A DNA stretch of 11,648 nt from positions 1-11,648 of IMG/VR virus record IMGVR_UViG_2671180963_000004; one strand, given 5' to 3'. Source of the stretch: a virus (lineage: Duplodnaviria; Heunggongvirae; Uroviricota; Caudoviricetes). The position numbers were made by a program, and so were the translations under genes. Positions 1,180-11,648 of the stretch are shown in pieces (position 1 is the first letter of the stretch; each line of letters opens with the position of its first letter). Under the pieces are notes generated by a model that was given only the letters and a program-made list of their open reading frames with translations, was not told the origin of the DNA and did no database searches.

Positions 1180-1357
1180 TCAGCTCACGCTGGCTGAAAT
1201 TCTGGCGGTAGGCTTTCACCTCGGAAATGGTCTTACAGCCCCATGCGCTGATATAAAGGGAAATCAGTGTCGCCTTGCGTTCGGCGAGAATGGTTTCAAA
1301 GTCCAGCTCCTCGACCACATCCGGTGCGGGTAGCTGGTTCAGGTCGATAATCGGCAT
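1094..1357 (-). pseudogene. J: Baseplate protein J (P2 gpJ-like) N-terminal stub; only about the first 35 codons look J-like, remainder runs into D-derived DNA out of frame
   Basis: N-terminus MPIIDLNQLPAPDVVEELDFETILAERKATLISLY matches the P2 gpJ N-terminus as I recall it. The ORF is 87 codons, far shorter than a full baseplate J protein of roughly 300 aa. Sits 4 nt downstream of the W stop, as expected for the V-W-J order. Confidence 0.55.
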
Positions 1358-1361
1358 GGTT

Positions 1362-1709
1362 TCAACTCACAGGGATGGTTAACGAAAGTGGCTGGCCGGT
1401 GTCGTTGTGCTGGCCGGTTAACGTGACCGTCATTCGCCCGTCAAAACTGCGCGCCGTAGTGACGGATGACAGGGTGACGCGGGGTTCCCATTTCAGCACC
1501 GCCATGTAACAGGCGACCTTAATCTGCAACTCAAGCGCCTGGGTCTGCGGCTGGTCAATCATTGATGCCAGCAACGAGCCGTAATCACGACGCATCACCC
1601 GTGAGCCGACCGGTGTGCGCAGGATATCGCCGATACTCTGGCTGATATGCTCAAGGTCAGTGACAGTCAGGCCATCACTGCGATTCATTCCGAGATAACG
1701 TGCTGTCAT
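1362..1709 (-). CDS. W: Baseplate protein W (P2 gpW-like, 115 aa)
   Basis: Full-length 115-aa ORF, MTARYLGMNRSDGLTVTDLEHISQSIGDILRTPVGSRVMRRDYGSLLASMIDQPQT.... Its start overlaps the V stop by 4 nt (ATGA). Position V-W-J is syntenic with P2. Confidence 0.85.
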   Translation of the reverse strand: MTARYLGMNRSDGLTVTDLEHISQSIGDILRTPVGSRVMRRDYGSLLASMIDQPQTQALELQIKVACYMAVLKWEPRVTLSSVTTARSFDGRMTVTLTGQHNDTGQPLSLTIPVS

Positions 1710-2341
1710 AGAGGACTCCCGGTTGTGCCGCCGCTGTCTCCTGGGTGTTTGTGGGTATGCAGTACCTTACCGTTTGATGAGAGTTCACCGCCGGTGTGTT
1801 CAATGTTGCCGCGCATCGTCCCGCCCTTCTGCACTTCCAGCGTGCCGGTAATCAGCCTGTTGGTGCAGACCACCTCCGGTGTGTCCAGGGTGACGCGGGT
1901 TGATGCTTTCACCATGACCACCGGCACCGTGGCAGTAACAGAATCAGAAGCCGTCACGCTGACCGTTTTAATTCCGCTTACCGTGAGTGCACTGGTTTCG
2001 GGTTCATATTCAATCACCGCTCCGTCAGGGAAACGGATATGCAGGGCATCCGCCGACGCAGACGGCGCGGGGTTATCGCCGGAATAAATCCCCGGCAGAA
2101 CGAACGCCGTGTCGAGTTCACCGCCCACGGCCAGAATCAGCACCTGCTCCCCCACGGAAGGTGCCCACCATGTGCGCGAACGACCGGCACGATGGGTCAG
2201 CCACTGAAGCCAGTCAGTGCACATGCCGCCGGTCTGCACACGGCAGCGACCGGCGTTAAGGTCGGTTTCGACGACAAGGCCGGTGCGGATCATGTTGCGC
2301 AGTGCGCGCGCGAGTTCCTGAATATTTGCGAGAGTGTTCAT
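1706..2341 (-). CDS. V: Baseplate central spike protein V (P2 gpV-like, 211 aa)
   Basis: 211-aa ORF of the length expected for gpV. Lies between S and W in P2 order. Confidence 0.85.
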   Translation of the reverse strand: MNTLANIQELARALRNMIRTGLVVETDLNAGRCRVQTGGMCTDWLQWLTHRAGRSRTWWAPSVGEQVLILAVGGELDTAFVLPGIYSGDNPAPSASADALHIRFPDGAVIEYEPETSALTVSGIKTVSVTASDSVTATVPVVMVKASTRVTLDTPEVVCTNRLITGTLEVQKGGTMRGNIEHTGGELSSNGKVLHTHKHPGDSGGTTGSPL

Positions 2342-2407
2342 AACGGGAAGGATGCCGCCGGGTCATACCGGCGGCAATGTGACGATGAGGTGTCGGGAAT
2401 GGCACAA

Positions 2408-2860
2408 CTAACGGTCGAGGTGCGCCAGAATAATCTCTTCAATCATCTGCACATCCTCACCGGTAAAGCCGAGCAGGGGACGCGCCGGATAATCAATTTT
2501 CTTACCGTCTTTCCGGTTTTCTTCCGACAGACCGAACTGATGCACACTGGCGATTTTCGGTGACTTTCCGCCGTAAAATTCCATTGATGCCTGTTCCGGG
2601 CTGGCGCGGATATGCAAAAAACGACTGGTGATAAGTTTCGCAAACATTTTTCGCTTAACACGACCAGTCTTTTTTCTGGCGCTCTGCTGCTGGCGTGGCA
2701 CGTAGGGTGTGCCGTCCGGGGCTTTCTGTGCCATCACCCGACGCTGCTGACTCTGCCGCAGGCGCTTCGCCAGTTCGGCACTCAGTCGCCGACGCCCTGA
2801 CGGTGACAGCGATTCAATCAGTCCGGTCAGCCGGTCTTCAAAACGCTTAAACTCATTCAT
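2408..2860 (-). CDS. S: Tail completion protein S (P2 gpS-like, 150 aa)
   Basis: 150-aa ORF; start overlaps the upstream R-frame stop by 8 nt, as in a coupled late operon. Sits in S position upstream of V. Confidence 0.82.
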   Translation of the reverse strand: MNEFKRFEDRLTGLIESLSPSGRRRLSAELAKRLRQSQQRRVMAQKAPDGTPYVPRQQQSARKKTGRVKRKMFAKLITSRFLHIRASPEQASMEFYGGKSPKIASVHQFGLSEENRKDGKKIDYPARPLLGFTGEDVQMIEEIILAHLDR

Positions 2861-3059
2861 CCCACTTACTCACCAGTTCGCCATTGATATAAAGCTCCAT
2901 CGGGCGGGTGACCGGCTCCGGCGGCGGAGGTTCCGGGATATTCTTCACATGCAGCGCGCCGTCCACCTCACTGACCAGCGTGCGCTCGGTCAGCATCAGG
3001 CTGATGCTGATACAGGACAGGATTCGGGAAATAAACGGCTGGCTCGGCCAGGAGGTCAT
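2853..3059 (-). pseudogene. R: Tail completion protein R (P2 gpR-like), 3' fragment only (68 codons)
   Basis: 68-codon ORF ending 8 nt inside the S start, i.e. R position. Manual translation upstream of the ATG at 3057-3059 hits an in-frame stop at 3072-3074. Full-length gpR is roughly twice this size, so this is probably a 5'-truncated remnant. Confidence 0.55.
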
Positions 3060-3105
3060 CCGCTTTAAAAACTACTCACTGGACACTGACAACGGCTGAA
3101 CATCG

Positions 3106-3126
3106 CCGCCTGCGGGCGGCTTTTTT
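3106..3126 (+). terminator. Intrinsic terminator-like hairpin (GCCGCC-TGCG-GGCGGC followed by TTTTTT), plus-strand orientation
   Basis: Perfect 6-bp GC stem with 4-nt loop, followed directly by a T6 run. Oriented for rightward transcription, opposite to the flanking late genes. Consistent with a relic terminator from the far side of a deletion, possibly downstream of gene Q. Confidence 0.4.
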
Positions 3127-3268
3127 ACACCCCGTCATCACGCCCTCACACGCTCACCACCGCACAAAACACCCCGCAGACACACCAACGCCCCGGCGCA
3201 CAATCTAAACGCCATCAAGACGCGCTCAGACGCTGAAAAAATAAAATCAGCACCACCGCCAGCGCGCA

Positions 3269-3287
3269 GTGCTTTCCCCGCCTCGCC
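3269..3287 (-). other. cos: P2/P4-type cohesive end site (cos), 19 nt
   Basis: GTGCTTTCCCCGCCTCGCC at 3269-3287 is the exact reverse complement of the P2/P4 cohesive-end sequence GGCGAGGCGGGGAAAGCAC as I recall it. Orientation agrees with the reversed gene order. Confidence 0.8.
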
Positions 3288-3472
3288 CGCCCGCTTCATG
3301 GGGCATTTTTAATGCAGTTGCATGAACACTCCAAGAGCACACCATCGCTAGTGATAACTAACAATAAAAGCGACTTCTGACGCATGCAAATCCATGCACA
3401 TGATGGCATTTTTCATGATCTATGCGGTATGCTATCCGCTTCAATTTTTAACACTTGTTAAGGGAGCTAGAC

Positions 3473-4615
3473 ATGGACATTATTGATTTAAAATCTCAAC
3501 TAGAAAATGAAGATAATGCCAAGAAAAGAGCAGAGTTGCTTGCTCAGCTAGAGGTGATAAAGCAAAACGCTGAAGAGCAAATTCGTGCTGAGCAAAAGGA
3601 TGTGGATTTTGAGACCAAAGAATTTACCGTTGAGTTATTAGTTAATAAGTATCATAGCGGATTAGAGGATGATACTAACGAACTCTTTGTTCCTGATTAT
3701 CAAAGGGATTTTGTTTGGAGTGAAAAAAGACAATCAAGATTGATAGAGTCTTTGATTTTGGGTTTTCCTATACCATATATATTTACAGCAGATGTTCTCT
3801 CCGAAGATCCCGATTTAGATGGGCGAATTGAGATTGTTGATGGCTCACAGCGAGTTAGGACTATACACGCTTTTATCCAAAATGAATTAGTTTTACAAGA
3901 TCTGAAATCTTTAGACGCCCTTAATGGTTTCAAATTCCAAGATTTACCATTATCACGTCAACGTCGTTTCATGAGAATTCCTGTCCGCGTTATAGAATTG
4001 AGTTCTAAATGCAATGAAGAAACCCGTAGAGATCTTTTTGAACGTATTAACTCTGGCAGCGATATATTGAAAGATATGGAAGTCCGTAAAGGATCAGAAC
4101 TTGGTTCAACAAATTTATATACACAGGTTATTAAGCCATGCTCAACAATACCTAAATTTAAAGAATTAGCACCTTTATCTCAGACTAAAGAAAAACGAGA
4201 TGAACGGTTAGAATTTACATTAAGATTTTTTGCCTACTTAGATAAGTACAAGAACTTTGATCATTCCGTACGGGATTTTCTAAATGACTATATGTTAGAA
4301 AATCGAGATATAGACGAAACTAAACAAAACTCAATGAAACAAGAGTTTGCTAATGTTCTATCTTTTGTTGATAACTATTTCCCAGCAGGATTCAAGAAAA
4401 CTATTACTGCAAAATCTACACCTCGAGTTAGATTCGAATCTCTCGCTGTTGGCGCAGCACTTGCATTACGTGAAATCCCTGACCTTGTTCCCAAGAACTT
4501 GGATTGGCTAAGCTCAGAAGAATTCAAACGATTGACCACTTCAGACGGAGCTAATAGTCGCGTGAAGGTAATTGAACGAATTGAATATGTTCGGGATAAA
4601 TTATTAGAGGATTAA
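3473..4615 (+). CDS. DUF262 (ParB/GmrSD-N-terminal-like) domain protein, about 380 aa, no fused DUF1524/HNH nuclease domain
   Basis: Motifs DYQRDFVW (nt 3695-3718) and IVDGSQR (DGSQR at 3839-3853) are the hallmark QR..VW and DGQQR-type motifs of DUF262. Preferred start is ATG 3473, preceded by SD AGGGAG at 3461-3466; the ORF track uses TTG 3455. No (D/E)HxxP-type nuclease motif seen in the C-terminal half. AT-rich composition. Confidence 0.8.
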   Translation: MDIIDLKSQLENEDNAKKRAELLAQLEVIKQNAEEQIRAEQKDVDFETKEFTVELLVNKYHSGLEDDTNELFVPDYQRDFVWSEKRQSRLIESLILGFPIPYIFTADVLSEDPDLDGRIEIVDGSQRVRTIHAFIQNELVLQDLKSLDALNGFKFQDLPLSRQRRFMRIPVRVIELSSKCNEETRRDLFERINSGSDILKDMEVRKGSELGSTNLYTQVIKPCSTIPKFKELAPLSQTKEKRDERLEFTLRFFAYLDKYKNFDHSVRDFLNDYMLENRDIDETKQNSMKQEFANVLSFVDNYFPAGFKKTITAKSTPRVRFESLAVGAALALREIPDLVPKNLDWLSSEEFKRLTTSDGANSRVKVIERIEYVRDKLLED

Positions 4616-4616
4616 C

Positions 4617-5297
4617 ATGGATCGTTTTCGTGAGGATTTTGACGAAAGGTCAGGAGAGATCTTGGCCTATTTAGATCTTTTGAAATTTATTGAGTATGCC
4701 GGTGCAGAACTGATATCATCTGATGATAAAGAACATAAGTTCTCCATTACTGCTCAATCACGAAAAACTCTAAAGGGGGCAGTATATATTCTATTATATA
4801 ACCTCATTGAATCAACAATGAGAGAAGCTATCTGCCTTATTCATGAGACTATTTATGATAGAAACGTAGAATTTGACAAACTCAGGAAAAATATCAGGTC
4901 AGAAATATTAAAAAGATTAAAAAATGAATCTGTAAATATTGAAAGTTTAGTTAACCGTCTTACTAAAGGTATATCTTGCGGTATATCTTATGGCACTTTC
5001 AACAAAAAGAAAATATTCTCAGGAAATATTGATAGAGAGGAAATCAAAGAAAAATCGAAAATATATGGTTTTTCAACATATTCTGATTACACTCACACTA
5101 AACATGGTGAAAAATTAGCCACTGTCAAACAACATCGTAATGATTTATCTCATGGCAATGTATCATTTGCTGAGATTGGAAAAAATGTTTCATATCAGGA
5201 CTTAGAGAATATTTCATTAGAAGTAATCGCCTATCTTGATGCAATCGCGAATAATATAGAGCACTATATAAATAATAATGAATATTTAGAACAATAG
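4617..5297 (+). CDS. HEPN-like protein with Rx4H motif (putative RNase/nuclease effector), 226 aa
   Basis: ATG at 4617 is 1 nt after the upstream TAA (4613-4615), with SD-like GAGG at 4607-4610, indicating translational coupling. C-terminal region has KQHRNDLSHG, i.e. R174-x4-H179 (cgt 5136-5138, cat 5151-5153), the HEPN signature. Largely helical-looking, K/E-rich sequence. Pairing with a DUF262 protein resembles the MAE_28990/MAE_18760-type HEPN family naming as I recall it. Confidence 0.7.
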   Translation: MDRFREDFDERSGEILAYLDLLKFIEYAGAELISSDDKEHKFSITAQSRKTLKGAVYILLYNLIESTMREAICLIHETIYDRNVEFDKLRKNIRSEILKRLKNESVNIESLVNRLTKGISCGISYGTFNKKKIFSGNIDREEIKEKSKIYGFSTYSDYTHTKHGEKLATVKQHRNDLSHGNVSFAEIGKNVSYQDLENISLEVIAYLDAIANNIEHYINNNEYLEQ

Positions 5298-5303
5298 TAA
5301 TAA

Positions 5304-5320
5304 GGCCTGCAAAGCAGGCC
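5304..5320. terminator. Bidirectional terminator-like hairpin (GGCCTGC-AAA-GCAGGCC) between convergent genes
   Basis: 7-bp perfect stem with 3-nt loop in the 29-bp gap between the HEPN stop (5297) and the methyltransferase stop (5327). Flanked by T-rich sequence on plus (ATTTTAT) and A-rich on the other side. Confidence 0.5.
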
Positions 5321-5326
5321 ATTTTA

Positions 5327-6352
5327 TCATTCTAAATGGTTCTTGATTGATTGCCCAATTGCTTTTCCTAGTTCCACAGGAACAGCATTACCTATCATTT
5401 TCCCAATACTTCTTATAACAAACTTGTCTTTGTCTTCTACAAAGATATAATCCATCGGAAAAGTTTGCAATAAAGCAGCCTCTCTAAGAGAAATCGCTCT
5501 ATGCTGTTCTGGATGTCCAAAACGTCCATTTCCGAAACCATAACAAAGAGTTGTAATTGTTGGACTTGGCTTATCCCAAGACATGCGCCCATATACACTA
5601 GCATATCCTTTACCGCTAGATTTCATATGACAAGCAGCAATCAGCTCCTTCGGCCAGTCCTTCCATGTACCACCAGGAACAGAGTGTATAATTCTTTTTT
5701 TATTAATCGGATTTAATTTACTGGCTCTATGTAATATATCATTTGGATCTGTTTGGCCATCTTCTAACGGAGGAAGATTTCCTATTGCATCTCTAACTGT
5801 TTTCAAAATAACATCGTCACGTTTTACTAACTCAATCGCCCCCAATTTTGAAGCCAACAATACATGACGGGAACGGTTTTGTGGGATTCCATATTCGACA
5901 CAATCAACCTTCGACGCCCAAACATAATAGCCCAACTTTAACAATGAATTATAAAAATCATTATAAACTTTATGTTTAGTTACATCAGGAACGTTCTCCA
6001 TTGTTACGATTTCTGGAGATACTTCGCGAATTAAACGTTCGAACTCATAAAGAAGAGGCCATTTTTTATCATCAGCCTTATCTTTTCCTTGAGTATATTT
6101 TGAAAAAGGTTGGCAAGGTGCGCATCCTGCCAATACTTTTACAGACGCATCACCATAAAGCCTCAGCAGTTCCTCTTTTGTTACTTTAGCGATATCTTGC
6201 TCAATAAACTTAGATTTATTGTTTCTTTCATAGGGAAACCGACATTCCCCCTCAAGGTCTATGCCTGCAACGACATCAAGCCCCGCAAGCTGTAAACCAT
6301 GAGTTAATCCGCCAGCACCACAAAAAAGGTCTATCACCTTTACAGTCATCAT
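5327..6352 (-). CDS. DNA (cytosine-5)-methyltransferase, Dcm/M.HhaI-like, 341 aa
   Basis: Canonical C5-MTase motifs in order: motif I DLFCGAGG (AdoMet binding), motif IV GCAPCQPFS (catalytic PCQ, about 6110-6118), motif VI ENV (about 5990-5998), motif VIII QNRSRHVLLAS, and a C-terminal GNAVPV. SD-like GGAG upstream of the ATG at 6352. Confidence 0.9.
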   Translation of the reverse strand: MMTVKVIDLFCGAGGLTHGLQLAGLDVVAGIDLEGECRFPYERNNKSKFIEQDIAKVTKEELLRLYGDASVKVLAGCAPCQPFSKYTQGKDKADDKKWPLLYEFERLIREVSPEIVTMENVPDVTKHKVYNDFYNSLLKLGYYVWASKVDCVEYGIPQNRSRHVLLASKLGAIELVKRDDVILKTVRDAIGNLPPLEDGQTDPNDILHRASKLNPINKKRIIHSVPGGTWKDWPKELIAACHMKSSGKGYASVYGRMSWDKPSPTITTLCYGFGNGRFGHPEQHRAISLREAALLQTFPMDYIFVEDKDKFVIRSIGKMIGNAVPVELGKAIGQSIKNHLE

Positions 6353-6435
6353 TCACTCCAAATCTATACGATGCTCAGTATACATCCCTTTCTACAAAAT
6401 CTCGAGGCCTAACTTATAAACTCCTATTGATTGAG

Positions 6436-8535
6436 TTAACGCTTCACTGAGTTTGACTCTAATACTGTTGAGAATCCCGGCCACTCATCAGCGACCTGAT
6501 AAGTAAAATGTTTCCCGTCATAATTTACGGTCGCCCCACGCGCCAGCGCCTCAAGCTCCCATCGCTGCGGCCTGATACCGTTCTGAGCGAGGTCAACGCG
6601 GATACGGGTAATTTGCATTCGTTCCGACCGGGTCAGTCTGGCCGATGGTGCCATTTCATACTGTTTTAACGGGCTTCCGTTTCTCTGCTGACGATTTGGT
6701 GTTCTCAGCCCGTGTTTTAATGCGCCCCTGAGCGCCCTCACGACCTCCGGGTCATTCCATTCGATAACACCGTCATCAACCAGATTAAGCACTGCTGCGG
6801 CGTGCTCAGAAGGCGTGGGAGCCGGTAACGAAGTATCACCGCTGGTGAGCTTTCCACAGTTATTGACAGGACTCCGAGGCGCGGCGATGCCGCTTTTTAA
6901 AGTCAAAGGCTCAACGACCGGCACTTTCGGAACAATGCGCCAGTCCGTCGTTCTGGTGATATGAATATGACGCGCGCCGAGATGCGGCGCGTAAATGCCG
7001 ACCACTCTCTCGACTTCTTCCTCGTACTCGTTAACTTCATCCGACGGACTACGGGCGACCCTGACAGTCTGACAATCGCGCGGGACATTTGCCCCACCCT
7101 GCGCGCTGATATACAGCGCAAAATCACCACTGTCTGCGGCGGCGCGTGCAGCCTCGACGCGCTCGTCAAACTCATCAGCAATGCTGACGCCGCGAGGCAA
7201 TTTGCGTAGTTCACGGTAAGCCCCCATTGTCGGCAGGCCAACCGTTTTAAATTGCGGAATGCGCCACGTTGACGCCCATGCGGTAACAGCCGCGGCAGTA
7301 TCTTTCAGCGGTCTGCCGGTATCGTTATCGAGCTGCCCATCCAGTGCATAGCCGTCGATATTTTTTGAGATGTATTTCGCGATATACCCCGCAGCACCGC
7401 CCCGATTAAGATGTTTTGCCTGAAAACGGTTTCGCGCGGCTCCTCTTTCGTCGCCATCCTCTTTGAGCGCATAGCGACGCATGATTTCGATAATCTGGTT
7501 ACGCTGGCGTGGATTACAAAAAAACATCATATGCCAGTGCGGCGTTCCGTCGTGGTGTGGCTCGACGACTCGCAAACCGTAGACCTGTAAATCATTATCC
7601 TTGAATGCCGTGCGCATCAGGCTCCAGATACGGCAGAGATAACGCTGCGCATCCTTTGGATTAAATGCCTCATCGTTCCAGCCGTGATTTAGCTGGACGG
7701 TTTTACTTTCGCCTTTTCCAACCTGACGTGTCGGGTGATACTTTGACGGCGCGGTCAGCGTGATAAACATCCCCACATCACCCTCTGCGGCGGCGTAACG
7801 CTCAATACCGGCAATGGTGTTCATCAGCTCCATCCGGCGAATTTCAGGATTAGAAATACTGCCCATCACCTTACTGATAAGGTCGATGCGCTCGCCTGTT
7901 TCCCTGTTTTCGAGATCACACGATTTAAGAAATTCCAGATTTGCCTGGCGGCGTGCACGCACATCACGAATGGCATGTTTACTGGCATAAGGAGAACGGT
8001 CTTTATTGACCTCCCCGACAGCAATCAGTAACGCCTCATGCCAGCGCATACGCTGGCCTTTAAGCTGATGAGTCCACCACTCATCGTTAAACAGACGGGC
8101 AATGGCAGAATATGCCTGCCTCGTGGTCATCTGTCCTTTACGGTATTTTTTCCAGTAGAGAGGGGAAATATTGAAAGCACGTGCAGCGCCAGCAACATGA
8201 CCATAGAGGTGAGCCTGCGCCTCATCCGTAAACAGCGATTCTTTTTCGCCATGCGCATCCACCCATGCATCGCAGAGTTCCTCATACATCATGAAAAGCT
8301 GCGATGAGATACGGGCGGCAAACTTTTTCAGCTCCTTGTCATTCATTCCAGGCAGGCGCGCATAATGGTCACGCTCTGCCAGAAACAGCAACGACGCGTC
8401 GGTGTTCATTTCATGGCGCTGATTCACGCGCTCAATGCGCGGCCATAAGCGACGCTGAAAAGTGGATGTGAGGAAATAAAACCCGTGCAGCAGGTATTGG
8501 CGCATCACACTCTTCGCAAACCAGCGAAGAAACAC
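6436..8535 (-). CDS. A: Replication initiation protein A (P2 gpA-like rolling-circle HUH endonuclease)
   Basis: HUH motif in PHHDGTPHWHMMFF and tyrosine pair in GYIAKYISKN, typical of P2 A-family initiators. Called start 8533-8535 is a GTG with an in-frame stop 9 nt upstream (8545-8547); an in-frame ATG at 8503-8505 (MRQYLLHGFYF...) is an alternative start. Coding region overlaps the upstream zinc-finger ORF. Confidence 0.85.
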   Translation of the reverse strand: MFLRWFAKSVMRQYLLHGFYFLTSTFQRRLWPRIERVNQRHEMNTDASLLFLAERDHYARLPGMNDKELKKFAARISSQLFMMYEELCDAWVDAHGEKESLFTDEAQAHLYGHVAGAARAFNISPLYWKKYRKGQMTTRQAYSAIARLFNDEWWTHQLKGQRMRWHEALLIAVGEVNKDRSPYASKHAIRDVRARRQANLEFLKSCDLENRETGERIDLISKVMGSISNPEIRRMELMNTIAGIERYAAAEGDVGMFITLTAPSKYHPTRQVGKGESKTVQLNHGWNDEAFNPKDAQRYLCRIWSLMRTAFKDNDLQVYGLRVVEPHHDGTPHWHMMFFCNPRQRNQIIEIMRRYALKEDGDERGAARNRFQAKHLNRGGAAGYIAKYISKNIDGYALDGQLDNDTGRPLKDTAAAVTAWASTWRIPQFKTVGLPTMGAYRELRKLPRGVSIADEFDERVEAARAAADSGDFALYISAQGGANVPRDCQTVRVARSPSDEVNEYEEEVERVVGIYAPHLGARHIHITRTTDWRIVPKVPVVEPLTLKSGIAAPRSPVNNCGKLTSGDTSLPAPTPSEHAAAVLNLVDDGVIEWNDPEVVRALRGALKHGLRTPNRQQRNGSPLKQYEMAPSARLTRSERMQITRIRVDLAQNGIRPQRWELEALARGATVNYDGKHFTYQVADEWPGFSTVLESNSVKR

Positions 8536-8620
8536 CGCAATGTTTTACCCTTGCCGCGTTAATCTGGCGCTCCAGTAATTCAGCCTGTTGTTCCTGAATA
8601 AAATCTACGTTGTCCGGCAT
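8432..8620 (-). CDS. Small TraR/DksA-like zinc-finger protein (possibly degenerate), 62 aa
   Basis: Contains CEECDAPIPAAR, resembling the C-x2-C-G-x-P-I-P-x-x-RR core of TraR-family phage zinc fingers. The expected second CxxC pair is absent in all three frames; the tail is VLFPHIHFSASLMAAH. Overlaps the A start region by about 70-100 nt. Confidence 0.45.
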   Translation of the reverse strand: MPDNVDFIQEQQAELLERQINAARVKHCGVSSLVCEECDAPIPAARVLFPHIHFSASLMAAH

Positions 8621-8622
8621 TA

Positions 8623-8925
8623 TCAGCTCCTTTTATCGTTAAGTTTCCTGGATACATCAGCGCAATAACTGGCGAGTTCTGTCGTTAATTTTGTCAGTTC
8701 ATCCACTGAGGAAATTTGCTTGTGGAACACAGCGCGTTTAACAAGTAAATTGACCACATCAGACAGGAGGTTTAATTCATTCTGATAAATCGCGATAACA
8801 GATTCAGTTATGTCGCGTTTTTCTTTATCAAGACAAAGTTGAATAAGAGACAAATCACCATTTTCCATAACGGCGATTTTTAAGGCGTTATTCAGTAATA
8901 CAACTGAATGAGAACAGGACATCAA
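8623..8925 (-). CDS. Hypothetical small early protein (100 aa), in the B-to-A interval
   Basis: ORF in the same orientation as the early operon; start overlaps the upstream ORF stop by 4 nt (8922-8925). No recognisable motif. Confidence 0.5.
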
Positions 8926-9146
8926 AGCACCTCCCCGCGAGACAATCCGATATTGTGAAATTTTTCCGACTCCTGACTGAGCAGCTCGACTATCTCCACG
9001 CGGGATAACTCCGCCTTTGTGATATGGCGAATCATGGCGTCAAGATGAGAAGAAAAGCGCGTCGCAGCGTCGGCCTGTGCTTCGGTTCTGGCCTGTTGCA
9101 GCAGTAATGCGTATTTACCGCACTGATTTTCAGAAACTGTATGCAT
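8922..9146 (-). CDS. Hypothetical small early protein (74 aa), downstream of B
   Basis: ORF in early-operon orientation, coupled by overlap to the next ORF. No recognisable motif. Confidence 0.5.
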
Positions 9147-9209
9147 GACTTTCTCCAGGCAAAAAGAAGCCCCGCACGATTAAGTGCGTTAAAAACTCTG
9201 GTTAATTAT

Positions 9210-9710
9210 TTAATGCAAATATTGCTCTGGTTTTACCGACGTCAGAATTGTCGGTGCATACTCAAACAGACTGAATAGTTCACGTAATGCACGGAATAAA
9301 GCATCACGCCAGTAACATGACTCTTCATTAATTCGCCAGTATGGCTGATTGAATTCTTTTTCAGTCAATCCGGCATGCATAAATAAAGTACGACGCTGAC
9401 TGACTGTTAAAAAACTAATATATGCATACTCACTTGCGCCAACCTGACGGCGTTTTGAGAATGCCCCACGCAATTCATCAATTGCACAAACCAGCCGTTC
9501 ACGTTCGACGTCGTTCATTTCTTCAAAACGCATCGTTGCGTGACGTTGTTTTAACTGCGCATGAAAGCAAACTGTTAGCCGTTCGCGCTCCATCATCTGA
9601 TTATAATAATCACATGTATCCTGCCAGCGAGGGACGGCAAGATGCTTACCAATTATCCGGCGCATAGCTGCTGGCTGTTTTTCGACGAGATTGAGCGTCA
9701 TCACTGTCAT
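9210..9710 (-). CDS. B: Replication protein B (P2 gpB-like, 166 aa, helicase-loader-type early protein)
   Basis: 166-aa ORF of the length and position (downstream of cox and a small ORF, upstream of A) expected for P2 B. Confidence 0.75.
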   Translation of the reverse strand: MTVMTLNLVEKQPAAMRRIIGKHLAVPRWQDTCDYYNQMMERERLTVCFHAQLKQRHATMRFEEMNDVERERLVCAIDELRGAFSKRRQVGASEYAYISFLTVSQRRTLFMHAGLTEKEFNQPYWRINEESCYWRDALFRALRELFSLFEYAPTILTSVKPEQYLH

Positions 9711-9877
9711 TTCCAGACCCTCCGGCTTTTCAGAAAGGTCAGAGCCTTTTTTAACGGACTCTGTTTTTTGGTGCGGATAATGATTCCCTTACGCCCCTTA
9801 CCGTGGGTGATGGTGAAGTCAATCGCCCTGGGGCTTTCGTTACGCAGTAACTGAGCAATACAACGCGGTTCACTCAT
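9707..9877 (-). CDS. Small early ORF between cox and B (orf78-like position), about 56 aa
   Basis: ORF track starts at ATG 9902-9904, which would overlap the cox 3' end by 25 nt. In-frame ATG at 9875-9877 lies 2 nt after the cox stop and is preferred. Stop overlaps the B start (ATGA-type). Confidence 0.45.
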   Translation of the reverse strand: MSEPRCIAQLLRNESPRAIDFTITHGKGRKGIIIRTKKQSPLKKALTFLKSRRVWK

Positions 9878-9879
9878 AA

Positions 9880-10152
9880 TCACAACCCCATCCACAAAAG
9901 CCATGCATCACGCTGTTCAACTGGTCGGTTATAAAACGCCTCTCGTACAGCGCGATTAAACTCTGGAATGAAAACCCACTTCTCACCGACACGAGCGTTC
10001 GGCTTACTTGGATCACGAAGCTCAATAACTGGCAATTTATTCTCTTTTACCATCTTGACTACAGCCGTTTCTGGCTTACCAAGTAACTCTGCAAACTTAA
10101 CCGTATGTACCGCATCAATCGGGTACTGAATCACATAGTCATTGACTTCCAT
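9880..10152 (-). CDS. cox: Cox (P2-type excisionase/early-promoter regulator), 90 aa
   Basis: 90-aa ORF, first gene of the minus-strand early operon and divergent from C. Region KLPVIELRDPSKPNARVGEKWVFIPEFN...RDAWLLWMGL resembles P2 Cox as I recall it. Confidence 0.78.
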   Translation of the reverse strand: MEVNDYVIQYPIDAVHTVKFAELLGKPETAVVKMVKENKLPVIELRDPSKPNARVGEKWVFIPEFNRAVREAFYNRPVEQRDAWLLWMGL

Positions 10153-10197
10153 TGATTAGCCCTTTTTGCTTTCGTGTTACCCTTATTAGATCCAGCC

Positions 10198-10227
10198 CCT
10201 TCTAGGTCGCCCCTGTCCTTTCTAGGG
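10198..10227. repeat. Direct repeats CCTTCTAGG / CCTTTCTAGG (10198-10206 and 10218-10227): second candidate operator or Cox-box pair
   Basis: Near-identical 9-10-bp direct repeats spaced about 21 bp apart (two helical turns) in the cox-C intergenic region. Confidence 0.3.
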
Positions 10228-10248
10228 ACTGGCTAACACACTCAAAAG

Positions 10249-10292
10249 GTCACCAATACACAACCTTTTGACGGGAATATAAGTCACCAATA
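10249..10292. repeat. Direct repeats GTCACCAATA (10249-10258 and 10283-10292) flanking the candidate Pe -10: candidate repressor (C) or Cox operator half-sites
   Basis: Exact 10-bp direct repeat, 34 bp apart, one copy inside the Pe spacer and one just downstream of the predicted start site. Confidence 0.35.
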
Positions 10293-10304
10293 GGTTACTG
10301 TCAA
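10276..10304 (-). promoter_or_regulatory. Candidate early promoter Pe (minus strand): -35 TTGACA (10304-10299), 17-nt spacer, -10 TATATT (10281-10276)
   Basis: Near-consensus hexamers with 17-bp spacing, read on the minus strand. Lies on the C-proximal side of the cox-C intergenic region, consistent with the face-to-face Pe/Pc arrangement described for P2. Confidence 0.5.
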
Positions 10305-10598
10305 ATGCAGACATTCGAAAAACTGAAAGCGATTAGGAAAGCAGAAGGCTTAACACAGGCGAAATTCAGCGAAATTAGCGGGATAGCTCTAGGAACAGTC
10401 AAAAATTACGAAAGTGGGCATAAAGACCCTGGTCTCAGCATCGTTATGCGAGTCACAAATACGCCTTTATTTAAAAAATATACGCTCTGGTTAATGACTG
10501 GTGATACGTCACCACAAGCTGGTCAGATCGCGCCGGCTCTCGCACACATTGGGCAAAAACCAACAGAATCAGACCGCTCCGAAAAACAGACTGGTTAA
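10305..10598 (+). CDS. C: Immunity repressor C (P2 C-like, 97 aa, HTH)
   Basis: N-terminal helix-turn-helix region LTQAKFSEISGIALGTVKNYESG. C-terminal KYTLWLMTGDTSPQAGQIAPALAHIGQ closely resembles P2 C as I recall it. Divergent from cox and upstream of int. Confidence 0.82.
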   Translation: MQTFEKLKAIRKAEGLTQAKFSEISGIALGTVKNYESGHKDPGLSIVMRVTNTPLFKKYTLWLMTGDTSPQAGQIAPALAHIGQKPTESDRSEKQTG

Positions 10599-10667
10599 CA
10601 CTCTATAAACATTACATTTTCACCATTTGTTACCAAGATGGTGAATACAGCGTCAGAGGGCTTTCTT

Positions 10668-11648
10668 ATGTCAATTAAGAAGCTCGATGATGGACGCTAT
10701 GAAGTGGACATTAGACCTCGCGGTCGCGACGGAAAACGCATCCGCAGGAAATTTGAAAGAAAAGCTGAGGCTGTAGCATTTGAGCGATACACAATCGCCT
10801 ACGCCAGCCAGAAAGAATGGGCAGGTCAGCGAGCAGATCGCAGAACTTTGAGTGAGTTGCTGGACATCTGGTGGAAATATCACGGGCAAAACCACGAGCA
10901 TGGAACAAAAGAGTTTAATCATCTGCTCAAAACCATCAGCGGCATAGGTGATATACCAGTGAGCCGGATGAGCAAAAGAGCTTTGATGGATTATCGTTCC
11001 ATGCGACTACGAAATGGTATCAGTGCCGCAACGATAAACCGTGACATGTACCGATTATCCGGCATGTTCACAAAATTAATTCAATTGGATGAATTTTCCG
11101 GGCAACACCCAATTCACGGACTGCCGCCACTGGCGGAGGCCAACCCTGAAATGACGTTCCTGGAAAAAGCAGAAATCGAAAAACTGTTAAATGTTTTGGA
11201 TGGTGATGACTTACTTGTCGCACTTTTATGTCTGAGCACTGGAGGAAGATGGACGGAAGTTGCCACGCTAAAACCAGCACAGATTACAAATTGCAGGGTT
11301 ACCTTCCTGAAAACCAAAAACGGTAAAAAGCGAACCGTGCCGATTTCTGAGGAACTGGAGAAAAAAGTTAAAGAGGAGGCCAGCGCTAAATTATTCAAAG
11401 TTGATTATGAGAAGTTTTGCGGGATTTTACGCAGAGTGAAGCCAGATATACCACCCAATCAGGCAACCCACATCCTGCGGCATACATTCGCAAGCCATTT
11501 CATGATGAATGGGGGCAATATAATCGCACTGCAACAGATTCTGGGACATGCGAGCATTCAGCAGACGATGGCCTATGCGCACCTTGCGCCTGACTACCTG
11601 CAAAATGCCGTCGCGCTGAATCCTCTAAAAGGCGGAGTGACGTTATAA
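10668..11648 (+). CDS. int: Tyrosine integrase (P2 Int-like), about 326 aa
   Basis: MSIKKLDDGRYEVDIRP... matches the P2 Int N-terminus as I recall it. C-terminal catalytic region HILRHTFASHFMMNGGNIIALQQILGHASIQQTMAYAHL carries the H-x-x-R box and Tyr of tyrosine recombinases. Preferred start is ATG 10668 with SD AGAGGG at 10655-10660; the ORF track starts at 10638. Stop is at 11646-11648, the window edge. Confidence 0.9.
   Translation: MSIKKLDDGRYEVDIRPRGRDGKRIRRKFERKAEAVAFERYTIAYASQKEWAGQRADRRTLSELLDIWWKYHGQNHEHGTKEFNHLLKTISGIGDIPVSRMSKRALMDYRSMRLRNGISAATINRDMYRLSGMFTKLIQLDEFSGQHPIHGLPPLAEANPEMTFLEKAEIEKLLNVLDGDDLLVALLCLSTGGRWTEVATLKPAQITNCRVTFLKTKNGKKRTVPISEELEKKVKEEASAKLFKVDYEKFCGILRRVKPDIPPNQATHILRHTFASHFMMNGGNIIALQQILGHASIQQTMAYAHLAPDYLQNAVALNPLKGGVTL

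Follow-up and report, generated by a model that had tools for sequence, protein, structure and literature searches.

The short spacer between two divergently placed genes, cox and C, in the tailed-phage DNA analysed here (the window, 11,648 nucleotides at its full length) raises two questions: what kind of developmental switch does it hold, and which proteins would its repeats bind? A first-pass annotation had read the spacer as a face-to-face pair of promoters, Pe and Pc, similar to that of phage P2. We found that the cox-C region (9880-10640) is 99.7% identical at the nucleotide level to phage WPhi (AJ245959, AY135739), and it also matches many Peduovirus records at 99.7%. Within the spacer, 151 of 152 positions are identical to WPhi, the single difference lying at 10196 (C here, T in WPhi). 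GenBank record AJ245959 carries two promoter features which, mapped onto the window, fall at 10306-10270 on the minus strand (Pe) and at 10152-10188 on the plus strand (Pc). The WPhi identity, these two promoters and the published 10-bp half-sites all bear out the reading of a face-to-face Pe/Pc switch like that of P2. Judged from the sequence, the region is very probably a P2-type face-to-face Pe/Pc developmental (immunity) switch of a WPhi-type P2-like prophage belonging to immunity class III. Because the 99.7%-identical WPhi region has been dissected experimentally, with transcription start mapping, EMSA and operator mutagenesis all published, this interpretation is right but was established beforehand: the switch is already known from WPhi, and its identification here is correct, not new.

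Immunity class III is defined by a WPhi-like C together with a WPhi-like spacer (PMC3448106), and a prophage differing by two residues has been assigned to its class on the basis of a (near-)identical C and C-cox spacer (Nilsson et al. 2011, PMC3448106). In the window, C is identical to WPhi C at 96 of 97 residues (R91 here, H in WPhi), and both half-sites are identical to those of WPhi. The practical value of the identification therefore lies in annotating the element as WPhi immunity class III; as a member of this class, it should make its host immune to WPhi-type phages, provided that C is expressed.

The proteins of the switch were compared with those of known phages. Cox shows 100% amino-acid identity to WPhi Cox and is homologous to the P2 Cox structure 4LHF (E 2.5e-20), and C is homologous to the P2 C structures 2XCJ/2L49 (E 6e-24); these structures were the only PDB relatives found for the two proteins. 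The sequence features by which a P2-type switch is recognised were present: an HTH repressor of about 100 aa whose gene heads an operon shared with int, a divergently placed cox of the Phage_Cox family, two face-to-face promoters in the C-cox spacer (Pe with 11 of 12 consensus matches, and both at the AJ245959 positions), and an operator whose two half-sites are direct repeats, not palindromic, and lie around the Pe -10. The coordinates are collected in Table 1. The start of int is annotated in WPhi at the equivalent of window position 10668.

Table 1. Features of the cox-C switch region and of the cargo genes, in window coordinates.
Feature	Position	Strand	Description	Basis
cox	9880-10152	-	90 aa; lytic repressor of Pc, excision directionality factor	Pfam Phage_Cox PF10743, E 9e-24
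cox-C spacer	10153-10304		152 bp, between the minus-strand 90-aa ORF (9880-10152) and the plus-strand 97-aa ORF (10305-10598)	
C	10305-10598	+	immunity repressor, 97 aa, HTH	Pfam HTH_3
int	10638-11648	+	tyrosine integrase, second gene of the Pc operon, 336 aa	Pfam Int_N and Phage_integrase; WPhi annotation
Pe	10270-10306	-	early promoter; -35 TTGACA 10304-10299, -10 TATATT 10281-10276, +1 near 10270	promoter scan; AJ245959 feature
O1	10283-10292	+	C repressor half-site GTCACCAATA, within the Pe -35/-10 spacer	published half-site description
O2	10249-10258	+	C repressor half-site GTCACCAATA, downstream of the Pe -10	published half-site description
Pc	10152-10188	+	promoter of the lysogenic C-int operon; TTGATT 10152-10157, 17 bp, TGTTAC 10175-10180, +1 near 10188	AJ245959 feature
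Probable Cox operator repeat 1	10195-10206	+	GCCCCTTCTAGG here, GTCCCTTCTAGG in WPhi	inferred assignment
Probable Cox operator repeat 2	10215-10226	+	GTCCTTTCTAGG	as for repeat 1
Inverted repeat H1	10242-10271		TCAAAAGGT (10242-10250) / ACCTTTTGA (10263-10271); 9 bp perfect, 12-nt loop	
Inverted repeat H2	10192-10232		CCAGCCCCT (10192-10200) / AGGGACTGG (10224-10232); perfect CCAGTCCCT in WPhi	
DUF262/GmrSD_N protein	3455-4615		absent from WPhi	PADLOC NsnA E 2e-54, PD-T4-2_A E 5e-35
HEPN (MAE_28990) protein	4617-5297		beside the DUF262 protein; absent from WPhi	
C5-cytosine methyltransferase	5327-6352		cargo between gene A and the cos/Q side; absent from WPhi	

A promoter scan of 9800-10700 gave one sigma-70-like site, which lies on the minus strand, has a 17-bp spacer and matches the consensus at 11 of 12 positions. 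Its -35 hexamer directly adjoins the C ATG at 10305. The minus-strand near-consensus promoter (TTGACA-17-TATATT) abutting the C start, which the first-pass annotation had described, was thus recovered, and so were the exact 10-bp direct repeats that it had placed around the -10. These are the only two exact copies of GTCACCAATA in the 11.6-kb window, with a start-to-start distance of 34 bp; the -10 is flanked by the pair, with O1 between it and the -35 and O2 at 17 bp on its downstream side. The half-sites of WPhi C have been described by the Haggard-Ljungquist laboratory as 10 bp long and 34 bp apart, and half-sites flank the Pe -10 in both P2 and WPhi (PMC1904268), with operators varying among immunity classes (PMC1904268, PMC1904263). 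WPhi transcription starts had been determined in earlier work (PMC1904263). WPhi C was found to be a dimer that bends its target and is able to bind one half-site in vitro; repression in vivo requires both half-sites, and it persists when their spacing is cut to 2.5 or 2 helical turns (PMC1904263). A search of the WPhi genome by the authors of PMC1904268 gave no further paired C sites. In the window, a one-mismatch copy of the half-site, GTCACAAATA, was seen inside the C gene at 10452-10461, 169 bp from O1, and it resembles the O2 variant of Salmonella phage SI7. As an additional C site this copy was rejected, being single, unpaired and a chance-level match, which is consistent with PMC1904268.

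For Pc, the position was taken from the AJ245959 feature, and the assignment of the hexamers is our own reading of the sequence. Pc may be an extended -10 promoter, TGnTACCCT at 10175-10183, instead of TTGATT-17-TGTTAC; the TGnTAnnCT motif of its -10 region was found to be conserved across relatives. Directly after the annotated Pc +1 lies a GATC (Dam) site (10189-10192), and most relatives in the WPhi-C clade have such a site in the same place.

As for the second question, two sets of repeats, the second with a spacing of 21 bp, had previously been taken for operator half-sites. This held for the GTCACCAATA pair, which fits C, but the second pair is most likely the Cox operator and not a pair of C half-sites. 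The second pair does exist, but in imperfect form: CCCTTCTAGG (10197-10206) shares 9 of 10 positions with CCTTTCTAGG (10217-10226), and their start-to-start distance is 20 bp, not 21. When extended from 10192 and 10212, they match at 12 of 15 positions, a value that was reached by 5.8% of 1000 shuffles, so that the pair is marginal when taken alone; the argument for it is one of literature and relatives rather than of statistics. WPhi Cox acts as the repressor of Pc, promotes excision and fails to activate satellite phage P4; what it recognises between Pe and Pc is a direct repeat of 12 nt (PMC5009727). Since a repeat search identified the second pair as the sole other direct-repeat family of such size in the spacer, we infer that the 12-nt Cox repeat of the literature is most likely the pair at 10195-10226, which in WPhi (GTCCCTTCTAGG / GTCCTTTCTAGG) is identical at 11 of 12 positions. 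By sequence reading, repeats of the TTCTA type or the GTCCTT type recur about 20 bp apart in three close relatives (L008, L010 and L011).

A further Cox site may lie in the attP region. Ahlgren-Berg et al. are said to have described (in 2009, Virology 385:303) an "imperfect direct repeat of 12 nucleotides" and, in attP, a 9-bp repeat sharing 5 bp with it. In the WPhi attP region downstream of int (L004 3599-3623, outside the window), we observed GTTTTCTTA twice, 16 bp apart, and the two copies are consistent with the 9-bp repeat that was reportedly found there. As it shares TTTCT with the spacer repeat, the GTTTTCTTA pair is a possible Cox site in attP. Directly after the int stop codon, WPhi (L004) has TCCCTTCT.

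The one position at which the spacer departs from WPhi belongs to Cox repeat 1 as well as to the 5' arm of the inverted repeat H2; in H2, the C at 10196 is mismatched with A on the Pc strand, and the Pe strand has a G-U pair there. Among the 34 switch regions from IMG/VR, 31 have T at this position and three have C, so that the window carries the minority allele. The presence of C in repeat 1 might alter the affinity for Cox.

The overlap with H2 also bears on another explanation, namely that the second pair is a by-product of this hairpin and no protein operator at all, Cox binding elsewhere in the spacer. The two repeats overlap the two arms of H2 (repeat 1 the 5' arm, repeat 2 the 3' arm), H2 is conserved in relatives with differing loop sequences, and the pair itself is identical at 12 of 15 positions only, with a shuffle p of about 0.06. 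We nevertheless consider this explanation improbable, given the 12-nt direct repeat at which WPhi Cox acts in Pe-Pc (PMC5009727), the failure of the repeat search to find any other direct-repeat family of that size in the spacer, and the recurrence of TTCTA- and GTCCTT-type repeats in the three relatives. Very unlikely is the extended operator implied by the wording of the first-pass annotation, in which all four repeats would be C sites covering Pe and Pc. P2 C does regulate its own promoter as well (PMC3448106), but the two repeat families are unrelated (GTCACCAATA versus CCYTTCTAGG), no further paired C sites were found in the WPhi genome (PMC1904268), and the 12-nt repeat has been attributed to Cox (PMC5009727). 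That repeats and promoter match merely arose by chance in an AT-rich intergenic spacer can be dismissed almost entirely: although promoter-like sites were about as frequent in shuffles (mean 1.3, against one observed), 0.8% of 5000 dinucleotide shuffles of the 152-bp spacer contained an exact direct repeat at least 10 bp long (p about 0.008), the layout is conserved in diverged relatives, and in the published genetics and biochemistry of the 99.7%-identical WPhi region the half-site mutagenesis effectively refutes chance.

With the GTCACCAATA pair assigned to C and the second pair to Cox, the switch would work as follows. Pe, the strong promoter beside the C start codon, would fire leftward into cox-orf78-B-A, and Pc, the weak promoter beside the cox start codon, would fire rightward into C-int. 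From their +1 positions near 10270 and 10188, respectively, the two transcripts would overlap by about 83 nt. In the lysogen, C dimers would bind both GTCACCAATA half-sites, bend the DNA and shut Pe. Upon loss of C, Pe would make Cox, which would bind the imperfect 12-nt direct repeat close behind the Pc start (about +8 to +39), shut Pc, and double as the excision directionality factor. The specificity of immunity would be set by the half-site sequence together with the recognition helix of C. Of this scheme we observed the anatomy, the homology of the proteins and how nearly identical the region is to WPhi; the binding of C and Cox, the need for both half-sites and the transcription starts were adopted from the WPhi literature, the published +1 and Cox-repeat positions being those of GenBank features and secondary citations.

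Two inverted repeats were also seen in the transcript overlap. O2 lies inside H1, whose end coincides with the Pe +1; the two Cox repeats lie inside H2, which begins some 4 nt past the Pc +1. When folded, the 85-nt overlap formed exactly H1 and H2, with z = -3.0 on the Pc strand. The equivalent 86 nt of 20 diverged relatives folded well below shuffles, mostly into two stem-loops, with mean z values of -2.9 (Pc strand) and -2.5 (Pe strand), and with z < -2 in 16 and 14 of the 20, respectively. Covariation in H1 was analysed with the full helix of the stated structure on a MAFFT alignment of 16 relatives that was not fitted to structure. Here 79% of cells were paired, and 7 of 11 pairs had changes on both sides; double-change cells numbered 20, compared with 8.4 +/- 2.2 in shuffles (none of 500 reached 20) and 3-9 in slid controls. 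From the plain MAFFT alignment, RNAalifold predicted no more of H1 than its 4-bp core. For H2, MAFFT set the 3' arms 1 nt out of register between lineages; as such register shifts spoil column-wise counting, complementarity of each arm with its own partner was compared with that to the arms of other lineages instead. Own-arm complementarity in the 16 relatives was 7.5/10 versus 6.4/10 with other lineages, and none of 20000 permutations gave a value as high. Loop lengths among the relatives ranged from 4 to 14 nt in H1 and from about 23 to 29 nt in H2, and this variation favours a nucleic-acid structure over a dimeric protein site. Regarding the strand of the structures, G-U and A-C were counted 7 and 14 times, respectively. 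In several relatives, outer pairs of H1 lie upstream of the expected Pe +1, so that a complete H1 would be present only in the Pc (C-int) transcript of those relatives. A terminator scan of 9800-10700 found no intrinsic terminators, and no U-run follows H1 or H2; a role of the two as intrinsic terminators was rejected accordingly. No match to an Rfam family was found anywhere in the window.

Kept with compensatory changes in about 16-20 diverged relatives, H1 and H2 suggest a conserved structured leader. Tentatively, the two maintained stem-loops could give the C-int mRNA a structured 5' leader, their complement lying at the 5' end of the early mRNA, and thereby add RNA-level control, a possibility that we consider on balance rather doubtful. 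If true, mRNA stability, C translation or sense/antisense pairing would be added to a switch described so far by protein-DNA binding and promoter interference. Reporter expression from the minimal Pe/operator is reported to drop about 100-fold once flanking phage sequences are included, an effect "not studied further" (PMC1904263), and the stem-loops might explain this lower Pe activity. Mention of a hairpin, a stem-loop or an antisense element in the P2 switch was not found in the literature covered, a scope to which the primary papers in J Virol 1999 and Virology 2009 did not belong. The pair of stem-loops may be the sole element here that goes beyond published knowledge, and it is put forward as a lead, not a result, towards a post-transcriptional part of P2-type lysis-lysogeny control.

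Of 5426 complete E. coli genomes, 260 carry the WPhi-type switch, as do 34 IMG/VR contigs. Variation was limited to a few positions, namely the tenth base of the half-site (A to T or G, in single isolates) and the bases between the Cox repeats. Diverged C homologues of 35-71% identity were found at 80 loci when one genome per species was scanned. In the WPhi-like clade, the scaffold was fixed: TTGACA adjoins the C ATG, TATATT serves as the -10, and the direct repeats on its two sides are spaced by 31-34 bp; the sequence of the half-site repeat differed by lineage. Upstream of the C gene of Kosakonia oryzendophytica (L017), an exact 17-bp direct repeat, ACACATATAGGTTCCAT, was found 33 bp apart at the O1/O2 positions, and it is a candidate half-site far longer than in any characterised P2-like phage. 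Pairs of ATGGAACCTT in a metagenome-assembled genome and of GTCATTAA in Arsenophonus likewise occupy the half-site positions. In Salmonella phage SI7, the HTH region is that of WPhi except at two positions, GIALGTVKNYE being identical, and half-sites of the GTCAC type are kept, 32 bp apart. The finding of similar half-sites with a similar helix in SI7, and of GTTTAGAT with a different helix in P2, supports the view that the repeats carry immunity specificity, and together with the lineage-specific repeats it lends support to the earlier suggestion that they may define it. Collectively, a fixed promoter scaffold with half-sites that vary by lineage across Enterobacterales illustrates how immunity specificity diversifies.

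Beyond cox, the minus-strand genes of the window are orf78, B, orf80-83 and A, as in WPhi. The segment 3011-11648 was matched at 100% in two complete E. coli genomes. In one E. coli strain, NH-21, window 1254-3010 (parts of R, S, V, W and J) lies 8.5 kb away from 3011-11648, and 1-1253 maps elsewhere. Relative to complete E. coli genomes with this prophage, the window lacks about 8.5 kb and is not colinear at about 1253/1254 and 3010/3011, and the genes for head, terminase and lysis functions that an intact prophage has are missing. This suggests that the window is either a deleted prophage remnant or an assembly artefact; if the deletion is real, the switch may provide immunity only. From their annotations (Table 1), the three cargo genes at 3455-6352 probably form an anti-phage or restriction-modification-like module.

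Finally, the switch was compared with the known systems. In the CI/Apl switch of coliphage 186, too, the lytic and lysogenic promoters converge, and its small excisionase-repressor, Apl, binds direct repeats about one helical turn apart. In contrast, the CI protein of 186 has two domains and 196 aa, its targets are inverted repeats together with distal sites, and the phage has cII, a gene that the P2-type switch lacks. Of the marks of a 186-type switch (a two-domain CI of about 190 aa, inverted repeats and cII), none was found in the window, where the repressor is a 97-aa protein with a single HTH domain, the repeats are direct, and the genes following cox are WPhi orf78 and B, not cII. P2 itself (AF063097) is similar in that the Pe -35 lies at the C start, the -10 sits between the direct repeats O1 and O2, Pc faces Pe from the cox side, and int comes after C; in annotated P2, the elements come in the same order from the C start, namely -35, O1, -10 and O2. 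However, P2 is heteroimmune, its C is 44% identical, and its half-sites are 8 bp long (GTTTAGAT) and 22 bp apart, as compared with 10 bp and 34 bp in the window (PMC1904268, PMC1904263). Furthermore, P2 Cox binds cox-boxes of the form TTAAA(G/C)NC(A/C), to which WPhi Cox does not bind (PMC5009727). The closest system is WPhi (AJ245959/AY135739), from which the window differs in the SNP at 10196, in R91 of C and in the cargo between gene A and cos, and with which it shares both GTCACCAATA half-sites, the positions of Pe and Pc, an identical Cox, and int downstream of C.
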